DNA of 63,711 nt, the filler included, from Collodictyon triciliatum (Eukaryota): NCBI GenBank assembly GCA_043381765.1. It is 8 parts of 8 records of this genome, joined end to end, with 100 filler letters (N's around TTAATTAATTAA, not from the genome) between each part and the next. Parts side by side here need not be neighbours in the genome. Positions count along the whole stretch, not along the records: positions 43,549 to 52,865 come from JBHJMP010003072.1; 7 more parts are not named here. One strand, 5' to 3'. The notes under the pieces were generated by a model. The model did no database searches. It saw nothing but the letters and a program-made list of their open reading frames with translations, and was not told the DNA's origin. A program made the translations under genes and the position numbers. Positions 4,164 through 55,989 of this stretch are shown piece by piece; position 1 is the stretch's first letter, and every line of letters begins with the position of its first letter.

Positions 4164-4521
4164 NNNNNNNNNNNNNNNNNNNNNNNNNNNNNNNNNNNNN
4201 NNNNNNNNNNNNNNNNNNNNNNNNNNNNNNNNNNNNNNNNNNNNNNNNNNNNNNNNNNNNNNNNNNNNNNNNNNNNNNNNNNNNNNNNNNNNNNNNNNNN
4301 NNNNNNNNNNNNNNNNNNNNNNNNNNNNNNNNNNNNNNNNNNNNNNNNNNNNNNNNNNNNNNNNNNNNNNNNNNNNNNNNNNNNNNNNNNNNNNNNNNNN
4401 NNNNNNNNNNNNNNNNNNNNNNNNNNNNNNNNNNNNNNNNNNNNNNNNNNNNNNNNNNNNNNNNNNNNNNNNNNNNNNNNNNNNNNNNNNNNNNNNNNNN
4501 NNNNNNNNNNNNNNNNNNNNN
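4164..4521. other. Scaffold gap (N run without linker)
   Basis: About 358 N with no TTAATTAATTAA spacer. Confidence 0.95.
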
Positions 4522-18598: not shown

Positions 18599-19768
18599 TC
18601 AAGCGGAACAAAACTCATGGACTTTGCGAGGTTGCCCATTCACCCAGAACATCTCAACATCAGAAGTAATTATTGGGGTTTTCGTAAGCATGGTGTCCCC
18701 AACATATTTTTTTATCAAGTGTTCTTTTGACGGACCTCCAGGAAAATGGACTAACATGGGCCTGGTCTGTGTCGGTCGATATTCTAAGTATTCAACATGG
18801 GTCCTTACCCATGGACAATGCCTCTTACAATATTTTTCTATATGACCCATTACCAACGTGAATTGAACACAGTGATCGAGATAAAATTTAGTTGATGCTT
18901 GAAGGTATGCTTCATGGAAATACATTTGGTCGTCTGTTCCGTTCAATTTTAGTTTTTTTATCTTATTGCATATTGGACCAAGAAAATCCTTTAATGCTCC
19001 AGCATAACCGATGTATGATCCAGAATTCACATAACGTGGCCTACGTTAAGAATATATTAATCAGTTTAATTTAAGTATTATTGTCCCTCAATTGTTCGAG
19101 GGTTTTTTACTGGTTAAGAGAATGAGTCTTCCTCTTCAATAAATACCATCTATGCCATGCAATTGAATTTCTGGTGTTTAATAATAGTTAAATTAAAAAT
19201 ACCCTTCTGTAAAGCATTTGTTCTGGGAATTTATTTTGTCATAGGCACGAAAGCAATTAATTTTTCGAATTTTTCCATCAGAATCATATTGGGAATTAAT
19301 TTCTTTTGGATAACAATTATGTTCAACGGACAGTAGGATGTTTGTTTTCTTTTCCTTAAAAAGTTTAATCATCAATTCAAATTCGTTGTTAAAAATGACG
19401 TCGAGGCAATCAGCAAAAACGATAATCGTATCATTCGAGTATCTCTGAATTGCTTCGTTCATGATAAATAATTTATCCCTGTAATATACTCTGCTTGCTC
19501 CAAATTTCAATACGTGCAAAAGTGCCCCATATGACTGAGAAGACTTGATGAAATCGCAAAAGTGGTAGCGGTTGGTGTTACAAACAGATAGAACAACAGC
19601 GTTGTATTTTTGAACAGCTTTGTCATATGCGATGGTGTAATTTTCAGATATGTCTAACGGAGGGTCAAAAAATTCTTCAACAGTGTTCTCACTTCTTTCA
19701 GGCCACATTGAGAGTATCAGTGCAGCTATTGAAATTAAAAAAATGCAGAAAAGCTTCCTAGACTCCAT
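18599..19768 (-). CDS. Stand-alone PLOD-type (lysyl hydroxylase N-terminal) glycosyltransferase domain protein, type II membrane; copy 1
   Basis: Two exons with an N-terminal hydrophobic anchor. Motifs VLSVCNTN..FCDFIKSS, IVFADCLDVIF (DxD-like), SVEHNCYP, PRYVNSGSYIGYA, DDQMYF, LDH and PMLVHFPG parallel the PLOD GT motifs. Confidence 0.72.
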
Positions 19769-34027: not shown

Positions 34028-34127
34028 NNNNNNNNNNNNNNNNNNNNNNNNNNNNNNNNNNNNNNNNNNNNTTAATTAATTAANNNNNNNNNNNNNNNNN
34101 NNNNNNNNNNNNNNNNNNNNNNNNNNN
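34028..34127. other. Artificial contig spacer
   Basis: N44-TTAATTAATTAA-N44. Confidence 0.97.
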
Positions 34128-41788: not shown

Positions 41789-42613
41789 TTATCTGTGTTG
41801 TAGAAGCAGGTGGTCAGACCCGTAGGAATGTAGCAAGGTATAACATAAATGATCTAATATTTTTTTTCACAGTTTGAACCACTCAAATCTAAAAGTTTCA
41901 GGAGGTGAAGCAAAGGAGGCTACAAATAGAGAAATGAAAGAAAAACGAAAGAAAAACGAAAGAAAAACGAAAGAAAAACGAAAGAAAAACGAAAAAAATG
42001 AAAGAAAACGAAAGCAAAATGAAAGCAAAATGAAAGAAAAGAAGAAATACTTGAAGTAGGCACGGATGGCAATGGCTGCGCCGACAACAATCAGGGTGAC
42101 GAGAATGTTCATGACGAGGCCGGAGCCGCTGGAAGTGTCGGGAATGGCAGGCCCTGTGGGGACAGGAGCGTCGGCCTTCGCAGGTTTCTTTGGGGTTTCG
42201 GCCTCCTCAGCAGCGCCCTCGATGGTTCCGATCACGTACTTGTTGAGCATGTCGTACGCCTCTTTGGAGTGGCCGATGTCGTCAAACTCTTGCGTGGAGT
42301 CCTTTCCTGCTCGCAGAGAGAAAAGCAAGACAGTGTCGTTTGTTTGTGAACGTGATTTTTGGGTTGTTTTGTTGGGGCATTGTTGTGTTATGTCAGCAAG
42401 TGTCTTGTGTTTTGTTTCTTTGTTTCAATAAAGGGAGTGGTCTTCGGGCTGGAAGGCTTTGTGAGTACCGCCGCGCTCAATGATGACTTCGTCGCCACCC
42501 GGGTGCTCGTCCAGGAAGCTGGTCACGTCGAGGACTTTGCCTTTGTGGACAAACCAGCAGCTGCTGCGGGTGTTGTGGGCACGAACCTCTTCCCAGGTGT
42601 AGACTTTGCTCAT
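41789..42613 (-). CDS. CYB5: Cytochrome b5 (tail-anchored)
   Basis: MSKVYTWEEVRAHNTRSSCWFVHKGKVLDVTSFLDEHPGGDEVII / GKDSTQEFDDIGHSKEAYDMLNKYVIG, with C-terminal TM LVMNILVTLIVVGAAIAI. The stop probably follows a final intron (41789-41791). Confidence 0.95.
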
Positions 42614-44026: not shown

Positions 44027-47000
44027 ATGTCCACAACCGAAGCAAGCACCGAGGCCAACGCCAGCCTTGTCACCGTTGACGAGGTTTGTTTATGCACACA
44101 TTTTTGTAATGATAATTATTTGATGTTTTAGAATTTATCTGATTACTTGCATCAAAAACTGAGCACAGGCGGTTCTCGAATGGGTGAACCATCAGCTGGA
44201 GAAAATCGAGCTCAAGGCGAAGAACATACATGACGACTTCGTGGATGGCTTCTTTTTGGCCATGCTGATTGAGATGATCACCGGAAAGCCTCCGGGAAGC
44301 TACCATTCCCGCTTGTTTGCGTATGATTTCCATTTCCATTTATATGATCCTCAATCAATCTATTCTTCATGATTTGATACTTAATCGCTCCTTTTCAGTG
44401 ACAAAGCGATTGAGGAGGAGGTGCTTGTTGACGAGAATCAAAGACTCATCCTTGATTGGTTTCTTAAATTGAATGTGCCTGACGAGGCTTCTGCTGTTCA
44501 TGGTCGATACAAAGGTTTGCTTGAATTTCCATTTTTTGTTTTGTTTTGTCATCAACCACTAAAAATTTTTATGCACGGATGAAAATTCATTTGTATTACA
44601 GATATCGTTAGTCCCACCATACATCATCTTATTGGAAAAAGTGTTGGTCATTTGGGGAGCCTAGGCGTAACAATATCTTTTTTTATTCCTTTCAATAAGT
44701 TTTTGATTTGATAGCTTGTCTTGGAATTTAAGGCTGGTCATTTAAAAAAATGTAGAAAAAATGTCGTGAGAGGTACGATATTGCCAAGAAGCTCTACGAA
44801 AGAGCGAAGGCTCCGTTTCCGTTTCATGGTTGGAATAAGATCTACTTATATCATCATTTAAATTTTATGCAAATTATTTTGGATTTATCTGTAAAATATG
44901 ATTATAATGATTTATAAAGGCTTCGGTTTGGAAGAAAAAGGCTCTGTCGTGCTCATCCGCACTTGCATTCTTCTTGACAAGGCAATCAATTAATATCAAA
45001 AATGAAAAAAAAATCAAATTCATTCATCTTCTTTTTTGTGAGATATAATCTCAAATCCAAACCAGATGAAGCTTGCTCGTGAAGACCTGAAGGAGAGGCA
45101 ATACAAGAAGTGGAATCCGGCCCCACAAAGATATGTGACCGCGACACCATTGCCATCCATAGTCTTTGATGAGCGTGTCATCCGCGTATTCCTTTCCTCG
45201 ACTTTTCGTGACATGCAGCATGAAAGAGACGAGTTCTTCAAGAATGGAGCCCCTGAGTAAGTCATCCTACTATTTTATTGAATGGATTAAATAAATCAAT
45301 CATTAAAGGTCATTATTCAATCTACTCACAATTTTATTATATACATATCAGGTTGAAAAGACTTGCAAAATCGAAGGGATTGGACCTTGTTTTTATCGAT
45401 TTGCGCTGGGGACTGACTTCTGAGGACAGTAGTGAGGGATGGGTAATCAAATAATAATTACAACCTTCCATATTTTGTGTAATTTTAATGGCATTTGAGT
45501 TCTAAAAAATGGAGAACCCAAATTTCTTCATTTTTCATAGGTTGTGATTCGCTGCCTGGATTCAATTGGAAAATGCCCATACTTTGTGTGCTCTCTTGGT
45601 GCGCGTTATGGCTGGATTCCTGACCAAAGTAAGACTGATTTGAACAAACAAGCCCGCCTTGAGGAGCTGCTGAATACCAAACCTGATGCCACCATGAAGG
45701 ATATTTGGGTGGAATGGCGCAGTGAAACCAATAGCCGCTTCCCTTTTATCAATGGAATGCCTGGGTTGAGTGTGACTGAATACGAGGTGAAATTAATATA
45801 AATGTTTTATTAGGTATTTTTCATCATGGTGAATATTACAGAGAAATTAAAAAAGTCGTTTTCTTGATTAAATTCTGTTCAGATTCAACATGCCTGTCTG
45901 ATTGACAAACCAGCATGCAGCCGCGCATTCTTCTACCTCCGTGATGAACACTATGCTATCCAACATGCCAAGAGCGAGGAAGAAAGGAGGCTGTTCCATG
46001 CTGAAAGCGAAGAGGCTGTAAAGAAATTGGCAGAATTATTTTTATATTTTTCCAGCTATATTAATATTTCTATGAAATGAAATGATTTGATATTGATGTA
46101 TATATGATTCCAGCGTAAAAGACAGGAGGAGCTGAAAGGGAAAGTCATGGCCAAGTTCGGGCATGTTGTTTACAAAGGAGCGTATCAGTATTCGTTCTTG
46201 GTGACCCACCACCTCACCTATGCCATCGAGCGTGACTTTGGAAATCAAATCGTATCTTTTGTTTTGATCAGCAAGGAGACTTCGATATTTATTGGACATA
46301 GAATATATTGTTTATATTTTGTTCAAATCATACCATATACCAGGTGAGAGACCCTGAAGACCAAGCGCAGCACCAGTTCAAGATGCACCGACTGGCTGGG
46401 TTTAGTGGAAGAAAGGAGCTCCTCAAGACAATAACAGAGAAAGTAAGCTGAAAAATAATGGAATTAAAATGACAACATATTTTTTCCCTTTCGTTTGGCT
46501 TTTCTTATAGTTTAAATTTTGTCAGGCTATGAATCAACTCAGCGTAGAGAAGTCCAAAATCATCGTTCTTGCTGCTGAGTCTGGAATTGGTAAGTCGTCG
46601 CTCATGGCTGCTACAGCGAGAGACCTGGAAGGCCTGAAGCATCCTGGACTGAACATCTTTTTCCATTTTGTCGGATGCACTAATCTCAGCAACTACGTGG
46701 AAAGGTTTGTTCTTTTCATTTCTTTCTGATTTAAAGATAAGCTTTATATTAATTTTGCGGCTTTTTATACAAATATACATTTTTGAAGTGTTTCGATTCG
46801 CTTCTGGAATCTGGTCACAAACACAAAAGACTTTACGGTGCTAAAGAACCACGAAACTGGTATTTTATTTCTGAATATTGTCTTATTTTCATCTTTCATT
46901 TGAAATTTCATGAAAATATTGAAAACTTTTTTATTTTTCTCCCAGAATACATAAAAGAGGGACTACATGGCTTGCTGAAAATGATTCAAGAGAAAAACAA

Positions 47001-50000
47001 GTAACATTTGCGTCCATTCCAAGTATTCAAATTTTATTGGTTCGCTGTTGAAATAGCAATTTATTTAATTATTATCATTTTTAGAGACGAAAAGTTTGTC
47101 TTCATCATCGACGCCATCAATCAAATCTATCAATCGCAAGGAACTCCAGCCCCGCATCTACTGAGCTGGTTGCCAAAAGAAACACCAGCAAATGTAGCCA
47201 TGGTTGTTTCTACCATTGATACTCATGAATCTTGCACGGTATTTATTGCAAAAATTCTATTTGTTCATCCTGTAATTGTGAATGATTTAGGCGGGATTCA
47301 ATAAAAAAAAATTTTTTTATCAATTACAAGTCTGCCGAAAAAAGTGGGTTGCAGCTGATTCCTGTCGCCAAGTTGACCAAGGATGAAGTTAAGGATAGTG
47401 TCAAAACATTTCTCAAACGCTATGACAAGACTCTGAACGAAAAGCAAGTTGGAATGATTTTGGCTGACTTGAAAGATACTGGTGAGACATTATTTTCAAA
47501 CATCATATATTTAGATGAATATTTTCATGGAATGGTTTAGTTTCTAATTATCTGAATTTATTATAGGCCATCCACTCTATCTTCGCATCATCTTGGATGA
47601 AGTCAGAGTCTTTGGTGTCTATGAGAAGCTTGATGATGAATTATTGTCGCTGCTTTCGACAAATGGTGTCATTGAGCTTTACACTCTCATTATCCAACGC
47701 TGGCAACTGAAGTTTGACAAGGAATGTGTGTATTGGTTTCATATTGCAAACAATAAAAAGAATCACATTTTCGACTTTTTATAAATAGCTCTTTGTTTAC
47801 GTTGCAGTTTCCTTGTCTGATGGAAAAGGGACAGATAAGGTCGACTATGTCTCCCTTTCGATGAAGGTTCTTTTTGTTTCTCGCATCGGTATGAGTGAAA
47901 GCGATTTGGACAAGTATATCAAAGATGCTGTCGGTACAGGATTTAGGCTTTCTGAATGGTTTGCTTATTTCCAAATTTATTATGCAGTTTCCCTCTTTTT
48001 TTTTCAGATATTTATCCAATTGTTTATTCAAACAGGAAATCGTTCTTTTTTACCCTCATCGAGTCGCTTTTCGTCCGCAATGGAAGGTTGATGTTATTTC
48101 TCATTTCTTATTATGTATATTTGCGCGAGCTCCATTATTTTGTTTGATAAAATTTGGATATTTTTTTTATTGTTATAGATACATGTACTTCCACCAGCTG
48201 CTTTTGGAGACCACCGAAAAAGTCTACTTCACTGAAAACCAAGAGATGGAAAATACACATAAAAAATATGGAAAATGGTTGTTTGGGCAACACTCTGAGA
48301 CAGTCGATGCGGATGAGGAACTTGTTGCTGAGATTTGCTACCAGCTTCTGAAAGGAAATTCGTTTGACTTGCTTGTCGAATACATGAAGCAAAACCATGT
48401 AATCAAAATTTATTCGCTATATCTTATTTTGAAATTTTATTGAATTATTTTTAGTCATTATTCAATGATTTTCACTCTTTTCTATACCCACAGGTAATCA
48501 TTATCATGCTCAGTGGTCGTTATCGCTATGAGTTCTTTACATGCTGGAGAGCAATCAACACTAGTGGAGCAGCAAACTACAAAGATGTCTATGGAAGTCT
48601 TGCTAAGGTAAAATAGATATGGTTTAATATTTGAAGGTTATCAGTACATTACAGCTCAAAATTGTTGCTTATAGTCATTGATAATATTTTAGTTATTTAT
48701 TCCATATTTTCCAGTCTTTGGACAAAGTAGGAGACTTGCTTGTTGAGTTTTTCTTGGAGTCTTTTGAGAATTCGTTTCTGTTGTCTGTTCTGAATGTACG
48801 TCTTGGAAAGCACCAATCAGAAGGTTTGCAAATCCCTGTATTCGGATAATTTATACCATGAAGAGAAATTTTATGTAGACATTGAGTCTAACTTTATATC
48901 AAGATTCAAAGACTGCTGATTACCTGAGTCTCGGTCGTGTCTTCAAGAACCTACAAAAGTGAAGAAACTTACATAACCAATCATATTTACCTTACCAATA
49001 CATCAATAAATGATTCTGAATCTGCAGAAGAATTATTTTCTAATATTAAAATAAAACAGCTGGGCTGAATCCATGGTGCACTATAAGAAATGCCTTGATT
49101 CAATTGAGAAAAATGAGCGAAATTCTCTGCGCATTGCCTCAATCCACGAGGAGATGGGAATCGTATATCAGCAACAAGATAGGTGAATCTTGTCGTCCAC
49201 TTCAAAATTAGATAAAGTTTACGAAAATATTTATTCTAAGTTACTATTTGCATAGAATTCATGAAGCCCTTGAGGAATACAAGATTTCACTGGACTTTAG
49301 AATCGAAAAGCTGGGCGAGAATAACTTGCAAGTCGCCCAGTCATATGACCGCTTCGGTGACATGTATATGAAACAGTCAAAGTAATACTCCAAAGATTTT
49401 AAATTTTTGACATTTATTAGGGTGTGATTAAAATGCACATTCGCAACAATGTGTAAATGCTGAATAATTTTTGTAATAGGATAGAGCAAGCTATGACTGA
49501 ATACAGAAAGGCCATGGAAATTCGCCGAAATAAACTTGGCAACGACCATCCTCTTGTCGCTATATCGTACCAGAACCAAGGTCATGTCTCTCTGGCTGAG
49601 AAAAAGTAACATATAATATGATTCAAGCTGATTTTCAATATCACCACGCATTTATTTTATGAAAAATCATCTGATTGAATCACTAAGGTTTGGAGAATCT
49701 ATTGAAAATTACGAAAAAGCCATATCAATTTTTGAAAAATCGCTGGGAGTAAACCATGCTTCTGTTGCCTCGACAATTCAGTTTATTGCGATAGTTCATC
49801 TTGCTAGTGGAAGGTTATAAAATTCATCTACAGTTTCTTTCATAAATTCTCCAGACTCAAAATTTTTTTTTAGGGAAACAGAAGCCTTGAGCTCATTAAA
49901 GCAATCGCTGGATGTTTTCATCTCTGCTCTTGGAGAAAATCATCCAAACGTTGTTTCCTGCTACGAAATGATTGGAGACACCAGCCACAATTTGAATGAG

Positions 50001-52520
50001 TAACTCTAATAATTACTCTTTTTCATCATGGTGAGTTGTCTTTTGAAAAAAAAATAATTATCTATCTATTCTATCTTAGTTTTAAGGGCGCTCTGGAGGT
50101 CTATACAAAGACACTGGATATTCGCATGAGAACACTGGGCGAAAATAATGCTGATTATGCGACTTCCCTTGAAAATGTTGGTAGAACAAACTTTGAGCTT
50201 CAAAGGTAACTTCATTTCTTTAAATGGTATTTCTGACTGAATCATTTTAAAAATCACTAATTTGAATGAATATAGATTGGACCAAGTTCTTGAATACTTC
50301 CAGAAGGCAGCTGCTATCAGGAAGAAGTCAAGAACTGTTTTGTCGCTGAAGAACACTCGTCAAATCGACAAAATTATCCGATTCATCAAGGACAAGAAAG
50401 AGTATGGAATAGCTCTTTTGCTTTACAAAACAGCAGCTGTTAGACACGGAGAGAAGTCATCTTATGAAAACTGGAGCAGTTGGGCATTATGTGAGACTGT
50501 ACACAAACACTGCAAAGAAAATAAGCAGCATAACGAAGCAGTGGCATTCTGGGCTGATATGAAAGACAGATTTGCTGATAAACTCGGATGGATTCATCCC
50601 AGAGCATTGAACTCGTGCGAATACTTGTCCTTCCATTCAAAAGAAATCGGAATCAACAAAGAGCCTGTCGAGTTTACAAGAGTCAAGGAATTCATCGATG
50701 AAACACTTGATGATTCAAAACTGGATGACAATTGGAATCATGAGCAAATAATTGTATCATTATTCAAGATTGTCTACATGTCAAAGACTGATGAAAGCAA
50801 ATCAAAGGCTGCGTCTAATGCAATCACAATTTTGAATTTCATGAATGTTTCGTTCAGTGGAATGGATTTATCAAACATCAAAATTCCACATGCAAATCTC
50901 AGTAGCTCAATCGTTGATAGTGCAAATTTTACTGGTGCCAACTTGGATGGTGTTGACCTCACGAATTCGATGCTTGGTGATTGTATTTTTGATAATTCAA
51001 ATATGAATAATATGAAATTCGGGATTCCTCATGATAAGTTAGAAGGCCATACGTGGGGTGTCAAAAGTGTTTGCAGCGTTCAAGGGCCGAATGGTGAAAA
51101 GTGGTTGGCTTCTGGAAGTAGTGATAAAACCATACGTATTTGGGATGTAATCACAGGGAACCGAATCAAAACATTAGAAGGCCATACGTGGGATGTCGAG
51201 AGTGTCTGCAGCATTCAAGGACCAAAAGGTGAAAGTTGGCTGGCTTCTGGAAGTAGTGATAAAACCATACGTATTTGGGATGTAGCCACAGGAGACCAAA
51301 TCAAAACATTAGAAGGGCACACAAGTGGTGTCAACAGTGTCTGCAGCATTCAAGGACCAAAAGGTGAAAGTTGGTTGGTTTCTGGAAGTAGTCGTGATAA
51401 AAAAACATGGATTTGGGATGTATCCACAGGAGAACAAATCAAAATATTAGAAGGGCACACAAGCAGTGTCAACAGTGTCTGTGCTATTTCAGGACCAAAT
51501 GGTGAAAATTGGCTGGCTTCTGGAAATAATGATAAAACAATATGTATTTGGGATTTAGCCTCAGAATTACAGATCCAAACATTACGAGGGCATGAATCGG
51601 TTGTTTTGAGTATTTGCAGCATCCAAGGACCGAATGGTGAAAGGTGGTTGGCTTCTGGAAGTTATGATAAAACAATATGTATTTGGGATGTAGCAACAGG
51701 GACTCAAATCCAAATTATAAAAGGTCATTATGGGGTTGTTTTGAGTGTTTGCAGCATCCAAGGACCGAATGGTGAAAGGTGGTTGGCTTCTGGAAGTAAT
51801 GATTTGATGGTGCATATTTGGGATGTAGTTACAGGAGACCAAATTCAGACATTAAAAGGGCATAAATATAACATCACTAGTACATGCAGTATCCAAGGAC
51901 CGAATGGCGAAAGCTGGTTGGTTTCTGGAAGTGGTGATACAAAAATATGCATTTGGAATGTAGCTACAGGAAACCAACTCAAAGCATTAAGAGGACACAC
52001 AAGAGAGTCCAAGGTTGTTCGAAATATTCAAGGACCGAATGGTGAAAACTGGCTGGCCTCTGAAAGTGATGATACAACTATACGTATTTGGGATGCAGCC
52101 TCAGGAAACCAAATGCATAGTCTGCAAAAGTCAGAAGTGACCTACACCCAAGGAAAATACCTTGTCAAGAAAGATAAATCAGAAGAAATCATCGCAGTAT
52201 TTAATAGAGCATGTGATGTGATGACCTTGATTGATACCAAGAGAATCCAAGACGCGAAGGCAGTCCAGATTATCGGCCCAAGAAAGTTGGAGGGTGGGAG
52301 TATTCAAATCAGAAACGTTGCAGGATTGAGTCGATTCAACAAATATCTTCTTCTTTCAATCGGTGCTGCCTCCTTTGATGCAGACTTTGTTGCATATTGT
52401 GAGCTGGGTAAGATTTCCAAGTTCCAGTCTCAAATGATTGCTGAGTGCTATGAAAATGGATGGGGTGTTGAGAAGGATGCTGAGAAAGCAGCTAAGTTGA
52501 GATGGAAAACTAAATCCTAA
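44027..52520 (+). CDS. NLR-like STAND protein: CH-like domain - DUF4062 - NACHT/NPHP3-type P-loop NTPase - TPR array - pentapeptide repeats - 8 WD40 - Sel1 repeat
   Basis: About 30 exons. CH-like: VLEWVNHQL..DDFVDGFFLAMLIEMITG..ENQRLILDWF. DUF4062: IRVFLSSTFRDMQHERD..FIDLRWG..CPYFVCSLGARYGWIP..SVTEYEI. Walker A AESGIGKSSL, Walker B FVFIIDAINQ, GHPLYLRIILDEVRVFG. Then 42-aa TPRs, NAITILN plus pentapeptides, GH...WD repeats and CYENGWGVEKD. Confidence 0.85.
51039..52121 (+). repeat. Eight tandem coding WD40 repeats of about 135 nt with high mutual similarity
   Basis: The unit LxGHxxxVxSVCSIQGPxGExWLASGSxDKTIxIWDVxTGxQIxT is repeated eight times, and the similarity is visible at DNA level. Confidence 0.95.
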
Positions 52521-52704
52521 TATGGTAGGTAATGCTAATAAATGCATATGGAGCTATATCTTTAACTTTTACTATTATTGACTAAAAGATAATACAGGTT
52601 CTTTCCATCAGACCTTACCGCCTTTTTCATGACTCTCATGAAAAAAAGAATAAACTATAAAGATGAAATCGCGTCTGCTTGATGTCTACTTTATCCTTGA
52701 GCTT

Positions 52705-52865
52705 TTTTTACTTTTTTTTTACTTTTTTTACTTTCTTTACTTTTTTTTTACTTTTACTTTTTTTACTTTTTTTACTTTTTTTACTTTTTTTACTTTTTTT
52801 ACTTTTTTTACTTTTTTTTACTTTTTTTACTTTTTTTACTTTTTTTACTTTTTTTACTTTTTTTA
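52705..52865 (+). repeat. Low-complexity (T6-7AC)n repeat at contig end
   Basis: Seen directly. Confidence 0.9.
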
Positions 52866-52965
52866 NNNNNNNNNNNNNNNNNNNNNNNNNNNNNNNNNNN
52901 NNNNNNNNNTTAATTAATTAANNNNNNNNNNNNNNNNNNNNNNNNNNNNNNNNNNNNNNNNNNNN
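52866..52965. other. Artificial contig spacer
   Basis: N44-TTAATTAATTAA-N44. Confidence 0.97.
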
Positions 52966-53382
52966 TTGTTTTTTGTTTTTTTGTTTTTTGTTTTTTGTTT
53001 TTTGTTTTTTGTTTTTTGTTTTTTGTTTTTTGTTTTTTGTTTATGTTGTTTTTGATTGTGATCAGGTCAGACGCATATCAACGAAACGGAGAACAATTCA
53101 TAACGTAAATCGTAAAACATTTAGAAGAAATCCTGAAGCATTCAGACACACAATCAGCGATATTTGATTTACAATCAAATTCAGAAAATACTACAAAAAC
53201 AGCATATATAACCACAATTTCGTTGATTTTGATAATATGCATTTATATTCCACATATTGACCAACGTTGGCCCAATGCGGATTTTTTCAGAGGCAAAGAG
53301 CTCCATCAGAACCAACCACAGATCGGCGTGTGCACAGGAAGCCAGCACAAAACCAAAGTAGGCGACGAGACGCAGCGGGAGA

Positions 53383-54371: not shown

Positions 54372-54467
54372 ACTCTCCACTTTAACACTGTTGGAAATAA
54401 CACCCAACCTTTTCTTTTTTTTTTCCTCATCATCCTCACTGCTTCCTCCCTCACTCCCATATGTTTT

Positions 54468-54498
<31 letters not shown>

Positions 54499-54691
54499 CC
54501 TTTTTTTTTTTTTTTTTTTTCGTTTTTTTTTTTTTCCCTTTCTTCTTCTTTCCTACCTCGCAGTAAAACGAACCAAAAGAGAAAAAAGAAAAAGACATAT
54601 CTCCCACCTGATAAAGACACCTTTTGAACGTTAAACCACCCAGCCCGCTGATCCCACACCAAGCAGGACGCAAGCACAATCTTCCGCGCAC

Positions 54692-55989
54692 ATGGACAAG
54701 AAGCTGGAGCCGAGCCTGATCACCCAAGGCAGACTCATTGGAAGCGGGCGACGAAGCTGCGCGTTCGAAGGGCTTTTTGGGGCCCAAAAGATATGCGTCA
54801 AGCGCTTCCTTGTGAGCTGGCTCAGCGCAAGGTCGCTGGAAGTTCTGGAGCCAGTCTTTGTGGCGGTGGAGTCACTCCGCTCGAAGCATATCCTCCGGTG
54901 GCACGGCTGGTTTGAGCATGAAGGCCAGGTCCACTTTGCGGTGGAGTTTGCGCCATGCGGCAGCGTAGAAAGGAGGATTCAAGAGGAGGGCGCGTTGAGT
55001 GAGGCAATGGCAATCAGATATGCGCTCCACGGGGCGCGTGCGATGAAAGCACTCTACTCGATGAGGCCGGGCATCTGCTATCGCCACTTTAACCCGGCGC
55101 AGATGATGGTGATGGAAGACGGCTCTGTCAAGATGGATGTGTGCGGGACAGAAGTCTTTGCCAGCACAGGAGACGGCCTCGATGATGAATGTGATGCTGG
55201 AGACGGCGTCTTTAGTGGGAAGATTCAGTTCTTTGCCCCGGAACTTGTGGAGGGCGAATCAGCGCACAATGAAAAGACGGATGTCTATGCGTTTGCTGTA
55301 TCGCTGCTCTACATGCTGACTGGAGCCCTTCCGTTTCTTGAAAAGAACGTTGCGCAGTATGGCTTGGCTGTTGTGGGTGGCCAAAGGCCTCCTATCCCGC
55401 AACATATTCCGCCGCCAATCCAGACACTTCTGCAGCGTTGCTGGGGTGCAAATCCCGCCGAGAGGCCGCGTTTTGCAGACATTGTATCGATGTTGGAATC
55501 AATAGCAACGCCGCTGCCTGGTCTGTATTTATTTCATCTCGGTTCGATGACTGTGGACGTATTTCTCGTTATATATATCTTTTCCTGTTTGTGTTGATGC
55601 TGAATTATCATTGTAAATATGTTGGTGTATATTATTTAGCTGAATCCGAGACAGCAGCAACTCTCAATAGCCTTGGTCAACCATCCTTGCATTCACCAGA
55701 GCCTGCTGCATCCGAGCGTTCGGCTCCGAAGCAAATCAAGGATATGGACACCACGCAGTTGGTTGCGTGGCTTGGTCAGTGGAAAGTGGATATGTTTACG
55801 AAGCAGGTTGAGAGGCTTGGTCTGCATGGGGCAGACTTTCTTTCCTTAACAGAGGCCGATATCGACGACCTTCCTGTCAAACTGCGAATCGTCCAGCGCA
55901 AAACGGTCCTTATGCTGATACAATCTGCAAAGAACGGTGCGCAGATAGGAATAGATGACTTTGCTTCTGAAGTGAGCAAAGTGCTTTAA
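54692..55989 (+). CDS. TKL-like pseudokinase with C-terminal SAM domain
   Basis: IGSG, ICVK, VEFAPCGS, FFAPE, KTDVYAF, TGALPF, RPPIP and CW..NPAERPRF. HRD is replaced by YRH and DFG by DVCG. One intron (55521-55639), then SAM-like MDTTQLVAWL..LHGADFLSLTEADIDDL. Confidence 0.8.

Follow-up and report, generated by a model that had tools for sequence, protein, structure and literature searches.

The window analysed here is a 63,711-nucleotide (nt) stretch of DNA from the protist Collodictyon triciliatum (assembly GCA_043381765.1), and on its plus strand, between 44027 and 52520, lies what frame, splicing and homology indicate is one real gene with a single spliced frame. We read it as the gene for a 1,962-amino-acid (aa) STAND NTPase with a head that would destroy nicotinamide adenine dinucleotide (NAD+), that is, an NADase head, gated by C-terminal repeats, whose likeliest role is the sensing of non-self within the cell; we give this reading a probability of roughly 0.6. 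The gene is not a new kind of system. It is a variant within a protein family described in 2026.

Gene structure and continuity

The plus strand from 44027 to 52520 presents many short stop-to-stop pieces plus a single frame of 759 codons, and the window is eukaryotic in character, AT-rich and with fragmented frames. Splice junctions were first read by hand, base by base, giving a model (model A) of 30 exons with a closed open reading frame (ORF) of 1,963 codons, in which two introns, at 214 nt and 29 nt, were outliers. Model B came from mending three weak junctions against P0007, a 2,619-aa protein of the protist Diphylleia rotans. This final model runs from the ATG at 44027 to the TAA at 52518-52520 in 31 exons, is collinear with P0007, and encodes 1,962 aa plus the stop with no internal stop codon. 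The introns number 30, range from 60 to 107 nt (median 85.5) and comprise 29 GT-AG and one GC-AG; all 30 junctions close in phase. The GC content is 42.8% in exons versus 25.1% in introns.

Exons 1-8 of model B lie at 44027-44083, 44169-44320, 44399-44514, 44602-44666, 44756-44828, 44920-44981, 45066-45256 and 45352-45442; exons 9-16 at 45541-45786, 45883-46017, 46114-46251, 46344-46442, 46526-46704, 46789-46859, 46946-47000 and 47085-47238; exons 17-24 at 47331-47481, 47567-47725, 47808-47958, 48036-48086, 48179-48398, 48494-48607, 48715-48795 and 48879-48958; and exons 25-31 at 49060-49182, 49256-49381, 49480-49605, 49688-49813, 49874-49999, 50080-50205 and 50276-52520. The end of exon 2 is ambiguous (44314 or 44320).

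The comparison with P0007 brought three corrections: a missed exon (44920-44981), the acceptor at 48036, and 45066 as the first base of an exon, with a GC-AG intron before it. The introns of model A at 47959-47987 (29 nt) and 44829-45042 (214 nt), together with its exon start at 45043, were dropped after this comparison. The missed exon, exon 6, was found through homology only and with exon 5 forms the linker between the CH and NADase domains (44756-44981), whose sequence PFPFHGFGLEEKGSVVLIRTCILLDK parallels PFFFDGLNLKGKGVAVLLAASILQDK of P0007 with phases that close. A GC donor (GCAATC) was inferred at 44982 because no GT donor allows exon 6 to reach the residues ILLDK; the resulting 84-nt intron (44982-45065) was placed by homology and spacing, and with it the distance to KKW is 16 residues, equal to that in P0007. 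The acceptor at 48036 was fixed by a W followed across the junction by KSFFFTLIESLFVRNGRYMYFHQLLLE (W/KSFFFTL...), which matches all the paralogs. For exon 4, the frame-0 reading ISLVPPYIILLEKVL was dropped, as P0007 aligns to the frame-2 reading, whose donors are stronger.

P0007 was the best match (73% identity over the exon) in a HMMER search with the 82-aa exon 45541-45786, a search in which no more than 13 of 1.84 billion representatives passed E ≤ 1e-3. Like P0007, the further paralogs P0029 and P0030 come as ORFs from the Trinity-assembled transcriptome of D. rotans (EukProt EP00002); they represent assembled mRNAs and not gene predictions from DNA. P0007 and P0029 carry the complete order of parts, and P0030 is 5'-truncated and begins within the NTPase. 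A blastp comparison of model B with P0007 gave a single high-scoring segment pair (HSP) joining model residues 1-1883 to P0007 residues 166-2139 (46% identity, 1787 bits), an alignment that crosses every disputed junction, including those from CH to DUF4062 and from TPR to WD40. When P0007, P0029 and the paralog P0014 were searched against the window by tblastn, 62 HSPs were obtained at E ≤ 0.01 and all 62 fell inside 44027-52520, with linked E-values as low as 1e-111 and 1e-162. Apart from two overlapping TPR-repeat matches that fall out of register, the P0007 HSPs upstream of 50300 follow residue order from 189 up; another HSP extends to residue 1989 at 52127. In addition, the final exon starts partway through a TPR unit, shares phase 2 with the five repeat exons before it, and lacks an ATG for ~100 codons from its start. 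The sequencing runs that share small word fractions with the stretch were of DNA only (freshwater metagenomes and one subsurface metagenome).

Together, the closure of model B and the single HSP bore out the earlier claim, made in a sequence-only reading of this DNA, of one frame from the ATG at 44027 to the TAA at 52520. That reading had also considered that the WD40 exon might belong to a separate transcript; the assembled transcript of the relative instead spans TPR to WD40 in one ORF.

Domain architecture

Domains were scanned exon by exon against Pfam, with P0007 as a proxy for the spliced protein; Pfam results for whole WD40-rich proteins are dominated by propeller families. The order found is a CH domain, DUF4062/NIR, a divergent NACHT-like P-loop, winged-helix and helical domains, seven TPR units, a helical linker, a pentapeptide segment, eight WD40 units and finally a tail with weak Sel1 similarity. 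The exon scans and the proxy agree on this order, which is the one that had been proposed from the sequence.

The CH domain occupies exons 2-4 (44169-44666, ~aa 20-130). Exon 2 matched Pfam CH at E=1e-4 and 22.9 bits, below the cut-off of 26 because the domain is divided over three exons; the corresponding region of P0007 (191-277) scored 42.8 bits, and P0007 residues 189-288 matched the window at 44169-44477 by tblastn at E=1.5e-11. The DUF4062 domain, also named NIR or TeTIR and described as a TIR-like NADase, spans four exons (45177-46017, ~aa 213-396). Pfam matched both halves, at 20.7 and 24.1 bits, each under the cut-off of 24.7, and P0007 scored 42 bits.

The STAND P-loop NTPase core (46526-47725) was recognized through exon matches that were all sub-threshold: colinear matches to NACHT profile positions 3-47 (15 bits) and 81-129 (14 bits), and an NPHP3_N match at 17 bits. 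Some paralogs pass the cut-offs for NPHP3_N, AAA_16 or nSTAND1. The core has a Walker A motif, GIGKS (46583-46597), a Walker B motif, FIIDA (47101-47115), and the motif GHPLYLR (47566-47586). The Walker B region (47101-47121) reads FIIDAINQ, so that the position +3 after the Walker B Asp is Asn, as it also is in the Diphylleia paralogs read, whereas the TEP1-like protein P0044, NWD2 (P0040) and a Dictyostelium protein (P0037) have D.

Winged-helix and helical domains follow (47808-48795, ~aa 732-937), as indicated by a paralog match and by the AlphaFold2 (AF2) model of paralog P0021, which is helical and confident in this part. The P0021 model had a predicted local distance difference test score (pLDDT) of 85, and its best Foldseek match was a solved STAND and TPR protein (6mfv_A, 9e-12); the TPRs of kinesin light chain (KLC) came after it, with KLC1/2 matched at 26-33% identity. 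Seven 42-aa TPR units of KLC/NPHP3 type cover aa 938-1233 (48879-50330), the last of them running into the final exon. TPR_12 was matched by three window exons at 19-30 bits and by P0007 at 142 bits. Exons 25-30 are each 123-126 nt long and hold one 42-aa unit, and their flanking introns are all in phase 2 at the same position of the repeat. This uniform arrangement of one repeat per exon suggests that the TPR array may have grown by exon duplication.

After the TPRs comes a linker of ~160 aa (50331-50816), in which a Pfam scan gave nothing below E=0.06; an AF2 model from the single sequence showed helices at pLDDT <50. The pentapeptide-repeat segment (50817-51029) was identified by a Pfam match on 50853-51065 (E=2.4e-11, 43.4 bits) that is well over the cut-off of 20.2, as is the 34.1 bits of P0007. 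Eight WD40 units of 45-46 aa lie at 51039-52121, where Pfam WD40 matched in eight stretches (E=5.7e-61, 200.8 bits). In an AF2 model of the final exon made without an alignment only the propeller was confident (pLDDT 76-93 for seven blades, the eighth lower). The units, unit 3 excluded, are 47-82% identical to one another in aa and 64-88% in nt; a 1-aa indel in unit 3 lowers its ungapped identity to 36-53% in aa and 52-66% in nt. By a crude regular expression, P0007 has at least 19 matches to the WD40 strand-C motif, versus the eight units here.

The C-terminal tail (52122-52517) is kept among the paralogs that have both arrays, its motif CYENGWGVEKD recurs in P0030, and a search of the ESM Atlas with it gave no usable match. 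At its end is one Sel1-like repeat (52434-52517; E=9.7e-4), which covers profile positions 7-27 of 36 and at 20.1 bits is under the cut-off of 30.7. The Sel1 "cap" of the sequence-only reading thus did not hold up, being a single sub-threshold repeat, and repeats above the gathering score, usually several in tandem, which mark Sel1-like repeat proteins, were not found. "Sel1" is a weak label and "NACHT" is properly NACHT-like, as both are sub-threshold. No LRR family was above threshold in the scanned pieces (only LRR_5 appeared, at E=0.048 over the pentapeptide segment), and therefore the protein is not an NLR by the strict definition, NACHT or NB-ARC plus LRR.

The putative NADase head

DUF4062 was described by Osinski et al. 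(10.64898/2026.05.01.722283) as a TIR-like NADase that acts in human TEP1 as well as in a defence system of bacteria. TEP1 was reported there to need E1008 for catalysis, the substitutions R908A and R976A lowered activity, and activity rose with concentration. Le Mouellic et al. (10.64898/2026.09.04.749371) renamed the domain NIR and reported that NIR-Avs2 depletes NAD+ upon phage sensing; Hornebeck et al. (10.64898/2026.09.21.753143) named it TeTIR, noted an RWG loop, and gave the C-terminus of the family as either WD40 or TPR. Across the first two of these sources, the NADase depends on a catalytic Glu and rises with concentration or oligomerization, and most eukaryotic NIR proteins are NLR-like with the NIR N-terminal (10.64898/2026.05.01.722283, 10.64898/2026.09.04.749371).

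Paralog P0012 matched the TEP1 crystal chain 11gz_A in the PDB at E=3e-18 and the first NIR exon of the window gene matched it at E=0.038; the NIR exon 45541-45786 searched alone against the PDB gave no match. From the P0012 alignment, TEP1 numbering is the 11gz_A chain index plus 893, which puts an R at R908, R954 and R976 and an E at E1008. When model B and eleven relatives were aligned locally, R223 (in SSTFRDM), R257 with the following W and G, R291 (in GARYGW) and E351 (in SVTEYE) proved conserved, and the Arg, RWG and Glu columns were invariant in a 15-sequence alignment (A1), where the Glu is E157 of P0021. The codons of these motifs lie at 45207-45209 (R223), 45404-45412 (RWG loop) and 45604-45606 (R291). 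The putative catalytic E351 is the last codon of exon 9 (45784-45786) and aligns with the E of SITELE in the TEP1-like P0044; its mapping to TEP1 E1008 rests on the numbering offset and the motif SVTEME, in a low-confidence stretch where the HMMER columns are shifted.

As judged from these alignments, the window gene keeps the putative catalytic Glu, the RWG loop and the Arg equivalents of TEP1 R908 and R976, and its N-terminal head is likely to be an NAD-destroying enzyme. The sequence-only reading had rightly placed a DUF4062 domain here and had missed its most informative point, the nature of that domain as a TIR-like NADase effector. Model B and P0007 have in common, after the RYGW motif and before the putative catalytic Glu, an insertion of ~22 aa containing LNKQARLEELLNTKPDATMKDIWV (45630-45700, aa ~298-322) that is absent from the other aligned paralogs and outgroups.

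Family position and relatives

The Pfam DUF4062 matches, the match of P0012 to 11gz_A and the tree described below agree in placing the gene, as the sequence-only reading had done, in the DUF4062(NIR/TeTIR)-NACHT-like STAND family of TEP1, NWD1/2, TTC41 and NPHP3. It shares with these proteins a TIR-like NADase domain directly upstream of a P-loop, NACHT-like in this gene, then helical domains and C-terminal repeats, and also the motifs SSTFRDM, RWG, RYG and SxTExE; its distant matches include NWD2 and a TEP1-like protein. It differs in that its Pfam NACHT match is sub-threshold, its Walker B +3 position is Asn, and its N-terminal extension is a CH domain where that of TEP1 is TROVE plus VWA. 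Published members end in WD40 or TPR, as the sequence-only reading had also stated, whereas the window gene runs from TPR through pentapeptide to WD40. Both kinds of C-terminal array are present in it, which goes beyond the published "either WD40 or TPR".

The nearest relatives are all from D. rotans, in which the DUF4062-NACHT-like family forms at least eight distinct clusters, a lineage-specific expansion. The mixed architecture was found only in the window gene and three D. rotans paralogs (P0007, P0029 and P0030), which makes it a small conserved clade in diphyllatean protists; in P0014, P0021, P0023 and P0026 the TPRs are the sole C-terminal repeat array. This distribution differs from that of a conserved single-copy housekeeping protein, which the sequence-only reading had named as the contrary case. 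The three mixed paralogs are 46%, 37% and 40% identical to the model, respectively, and have its C-terminal tail motif in common, and P0030 has the same order from the NTPase onward. None is identical to the window gene: P0007 has ~165 extra N-terminal residues and many more WD40 units, and P0030 continues after the Sel1-like tail with a MIB/HERC2-type domain (PF06701 listed) and two further repeated modules, which means that the C-terminus of the double-sensor clade is also being extended.

We built a maximum-likelihood tree of the NIR and NOD region with 18 rows, from which the 5'-truncated P0030 and 17 of the 29 relatives of one search were left out. The window gene was sister to P0007 (100/100), with P0029 next (100/99), and this double-sensor clade was nested within the clade of D. 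rotans TPR-only paralogs (100/100). A Cyanophora protein shares the TPR-type branch on which the latter sits, and NWD2, the TEP1-like protein and Dictyostelium lie on a separate branch of WD40 type. From this nesting, the pentapeptide-WD40-tail looks like a single addition to a TPR-type ancestor, the simplest account being that a module of the kind seen after NACHT elsewhere in eukaryotes was joined once in the diphyllatean lineage.

Mixed repeat types appear to be rare in the superfamily, and they are not unique. Three proteins, P0003 of Hexamita inflata and P0004 and P0005 of Linnemannia hyalina, have a pentapeptide segment directly before a WD40 propeller and a NACHT in the same protein. 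They align with model residues 1343/1378 to ~1840 at ~28% identity; by blastp at 1e-3 their N-terminal and NOD parts had no similarity to the window gene, and neither DUF4062 nor TPR was among the Pfam matches listed for them. A metagenome protein of the same superfamily, P0053, also has two repeat types (its TPR_12 tail scored 41.6 bits) in the reversed order, NIR-like-NACHT-WD40-TPR, on the NWD2-type branch; no CH or pentapeptide was present among its listed Pfam matches or in the sequence as read, with the C-terminal 285 aa scanned. The claim of an unfamiliar double-sensor architecture therefore stands in that it exceeds the published either/or, and fails as a claim of uniqueness in view of the D. 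rotans paralogs, P0053 and the Hexamita and Linnemannia proteins.

A distant relative from a metagenome, P0031 (1,823 aa), appears to have the order BRCT-TIG-NIR-STAND-TPR and to end in a complete actin-like sequence; if this is not a remarkable fusion, the gene call was joined wrongly. Two short NCBI records also matched exon 45541-45786: P0008, from an 856-nt record, at 87% identity (residues 16-82) and P0009, from a 334-nt record, at 60% (best stretch residues 1-32). Public records may therefore include DNA from an organism closer to this one than D. rotans is.

A literature search found no paper on the NACHT proteins of D. rotans, and a search on NACHT with pentapeptide, WD40 and TPR found no description of this architecture in the text the sources made available. 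Calponin, pentapeptide, Diphylleia and CRuMs are unmentioned in the main text searched of the three DUF4062 preprints, whose supplementary tables may list such proteins.

Proposed mechanism and alternatives

The structural parts can be read from the gene, and we infer activation, activity and trigger from the family. By extension from APAF-1, Avs and the proposals for TEP1, the C-terminal repeats would keep the NTPase closed at rest; the TEP1 authors cite the APAF-1 logic of WD40 autoinhibition. A ligand on the WD40 propeller, the TPR array or both would permit nucleotide exchange and oligomerization, and oligomerization would gather the N-terminal NIR domains and turn on hydrolysis of NAD+ into ADP-ribose plus nicotinamide. 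The cell would then arrest metabolically or die, or a signal derived from NAD would arise. Through its CH domain the protein is probably tethered to the cytoskeleton or positioned there. The weakest step of the proposal is the role itself, the sensing of intracellular non-self that might be viral, bacterial or prey-derived. Three things speak for immunity as the role, namely the type of effector, the expansion of paralogs within one lineage and the differing repeat numbers; such a role is plausible, and allorecognition, which the sequence-only reading had offered beside it, is a candidate role.

A functional precedent is bacterial. PsAvs2, an NIR-STAND-TPR protein, defends by NAD+ depletion on sensing the phage terminase, as reported by Le Mouellic et al. 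(10.64898/2026.09.04.749371), and shares with the proposal the NIR-STAND-TPR logic, C-terminal ligand sensing, oligomerization and Glu-dependent NAD+ depletion. PsAvs2 differs in being prokaryotic and having a single repeat type with no CH and no WD40, and its function was demonstrated whereas that of the window gene is proposed.

The fungal HET-E, HET-D and NWD NLRs, and APAF-1, resemble the protein in their STAND NTPase with mutually similar C-terminal WD40 units, and in the window gene variation is concentrated on the top face of the propeller. The window gene departs from them: its repeat identity is lower, at 64-88% in nt, no dN/dS (ratio of nonsynonymous to synonymous substitution rates) above 1 was seen, and the effector is a putative NADase, not HET or CARD. 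The pairing of very high unit identity with top-face positive selection that characterizes fungal-type NLRs was not found.

Several observations weigh against a repeat-gated, non-self-sensing NADase. At top-face WD40 sites chosen a priori dN/dS was 0.93 versus 0.38 for the scaffold, which is relaxed constraint and not positive selection, and the nt identity of the repeats is under the level of fungal repeats with high internal conservation. In P0007 the NTPase region (618-845) scored just under each cut-off (nSTAND1 26.1 bits, NACHT 24.4 with a cut-off of 26.7, NPHP3_N 22.3), and the Asn at Walker B +3 hints at ATP hydrolysis that is slow or lacking altogether. Its neighbours in the window are ordinary genes (PLOD-type glycosyltransferases, cytochrome b5, a kinase). 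In animals, members of the family have non-immune roles, as with NPHP3 and the cilium. The links of NWD1 to the purinosome and of TEP1 to the vault are further such roles. Full-length human NWD1, NWD2 and NPHP3 had no NADase activity in vitro according to the 2026 DUF4062 preprints, and therefore a conserved Glu is no guarantee of activity. Lastly, instead of being a second sensor, the TPRs may form a structural arm.

This last point leads to an alternative that we regard as possible although on the unlikely side: that there is one true sensor, the WD40 propeller with its pentapeptide collar, and the TPRs are an inherited arm for autoinhibition, spacing or oligomer contacts, or else that the TPRs sense and the WD40 recruits. 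NWD/TEP1/APAF-1-type proteins have a helical region between NOD and WD40 (10.64898/2026.05.01.722283), the Linnemannia relatives have an ARM-like repeat (residues 289-668; NACHT positions were not obtained) besides NACHT, pentapeptide and WD40, and the TPRs of the window gene form regular units, each in its own exon, whose conservation extends to P0007. However, the four TPR-only paralogs (P0014, P0021, P0023 and P0026) place the TPRs at the usual sensor position, and NIR-Avs2 is drawn with a TPR region, its C-terminal domain being credited with terminase sensing (10.64898/2026.09.04.749371).

Alternatively, the same molecule could have a housekeeping function as a scaffold or regulator of the cytoskeleton or flagellum, like NPHP3, TTC41 or NWD1, with CH and KLC-type TPRs binding cytoskeletal partners and the NIR either inactive or used for protein contact or local NAD(P) turnover; we consider this likewise possible, if on the unlikely side. 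The NOD does lie on the TPR-type branch, Pfam matches name NPHP3_N and TPR_NPHP3, the TPRs are closest to kinesin light chain, and a CH domain is present. The lack of a positive-selection signal and the ordinary neighbour genes fit as well, and the authors who found NWD1, NWD2 and NPHP3 inactive as NADases propose other functions for them. Set against this, the catalytic Glu that NPHP3 has lost is retained here, one species has several diverged paralogs with differing repeat numbers instead of a single ortholog across protists, and the exhaustive search with exon 45541-45786 found only its 13 proteins.

A bolder form of the proposal is that the protein is a two-input, cytoskeleton-anchored NLR-like receptor in a free-living, predatory CRuMs/diphyllatean protist, in which the TPRs and the pentapeptide-WD40 would sense different cues and gate a killing or arresting NADase; this we hold to be doubtful. 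The weakest explanation, that the ORF is an artefact of two or three adjacent genes (CH; NIR-NOD-TPR; pentapeptide-WD40) joinable in frame by chance, is highly improbable and largely refuted, for although the transcripts that span the junctions come from D. rotans and not from the source organism, one junction requires a GC donor, there is an alternative ATG at 45066 just ahead of the NIR domain, and the CH exon is below its Pfam cut-off, all 30 junctions are in phase with introns of 60-107 nt, the final exon starts mid-repeat in phase 2 with no early ATG, the P0007 and P0029 transcripts run through both junctions, and one HSP covers model residues 1-1883.

Other features of the window

Upstream of the gene in the window, on the minus strand at 41867-42421, is a cytochrome-b5-like piece with a hydrophobic tail, and downstream, on the plus strand at 54635-55594, is a protein kinase domain (Pkinase, E=1.9e-23), for whose ORF no relative was found at 1e-10 among proteins of 176-560 aa. 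Further away, at 19193-21991 on the minus strand, are two adjacent paralogous genes with matches to GT_PLOD, a PLOD-type glycosyltransferase (E=4e-10, 2e-7 and 8e-10). Microsatellites abound between the genes: (TTCTT)n/(TTTTC)n comes directly after the stop codon, and runs resembling (AG)n and tracts rich in A and G also occur (52650-53060, 33990-34080 and 54400-54560). Pairs of 44-nt N blocks 12 nt apart occur at a spacing of ~9.4 kb (9321, 15114, 24588, 34028, 43449, 52866 and 62279), and N is also present at 4164-4521. A tandem gene array suggested by this spacing was rejected when self-blastn showed only the internal WD40 repeats; as there was no 9.4-kb repeat, the N runs were taken to be regular masks and not biology.

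Implications for the family

The DUF4062/NIR/TeTIR-NACHT proteins were recognized as an NADase-armed, NLR-like family only in 2026, and with the CH domain of the window gene its known N-terminal extensions now go beyond the TROVE and VWA of TEP1. The double-sensor clade suggests that the modules of the family are still being shuffled in deep-branching protists. If the two-input possibility were true, the sensor modules of two otherwise separate branches of the TEP1/NWD/TTC41 group would have been fused in one protein, and that protein would correspond, in a eukaryote, to the abortive infection of bacterial NIR-Avs. With both arrays behind one putative NADase, the window gene offers a construct, ready-made by nature, in which to ask which of the two arrays controls the enzyme.

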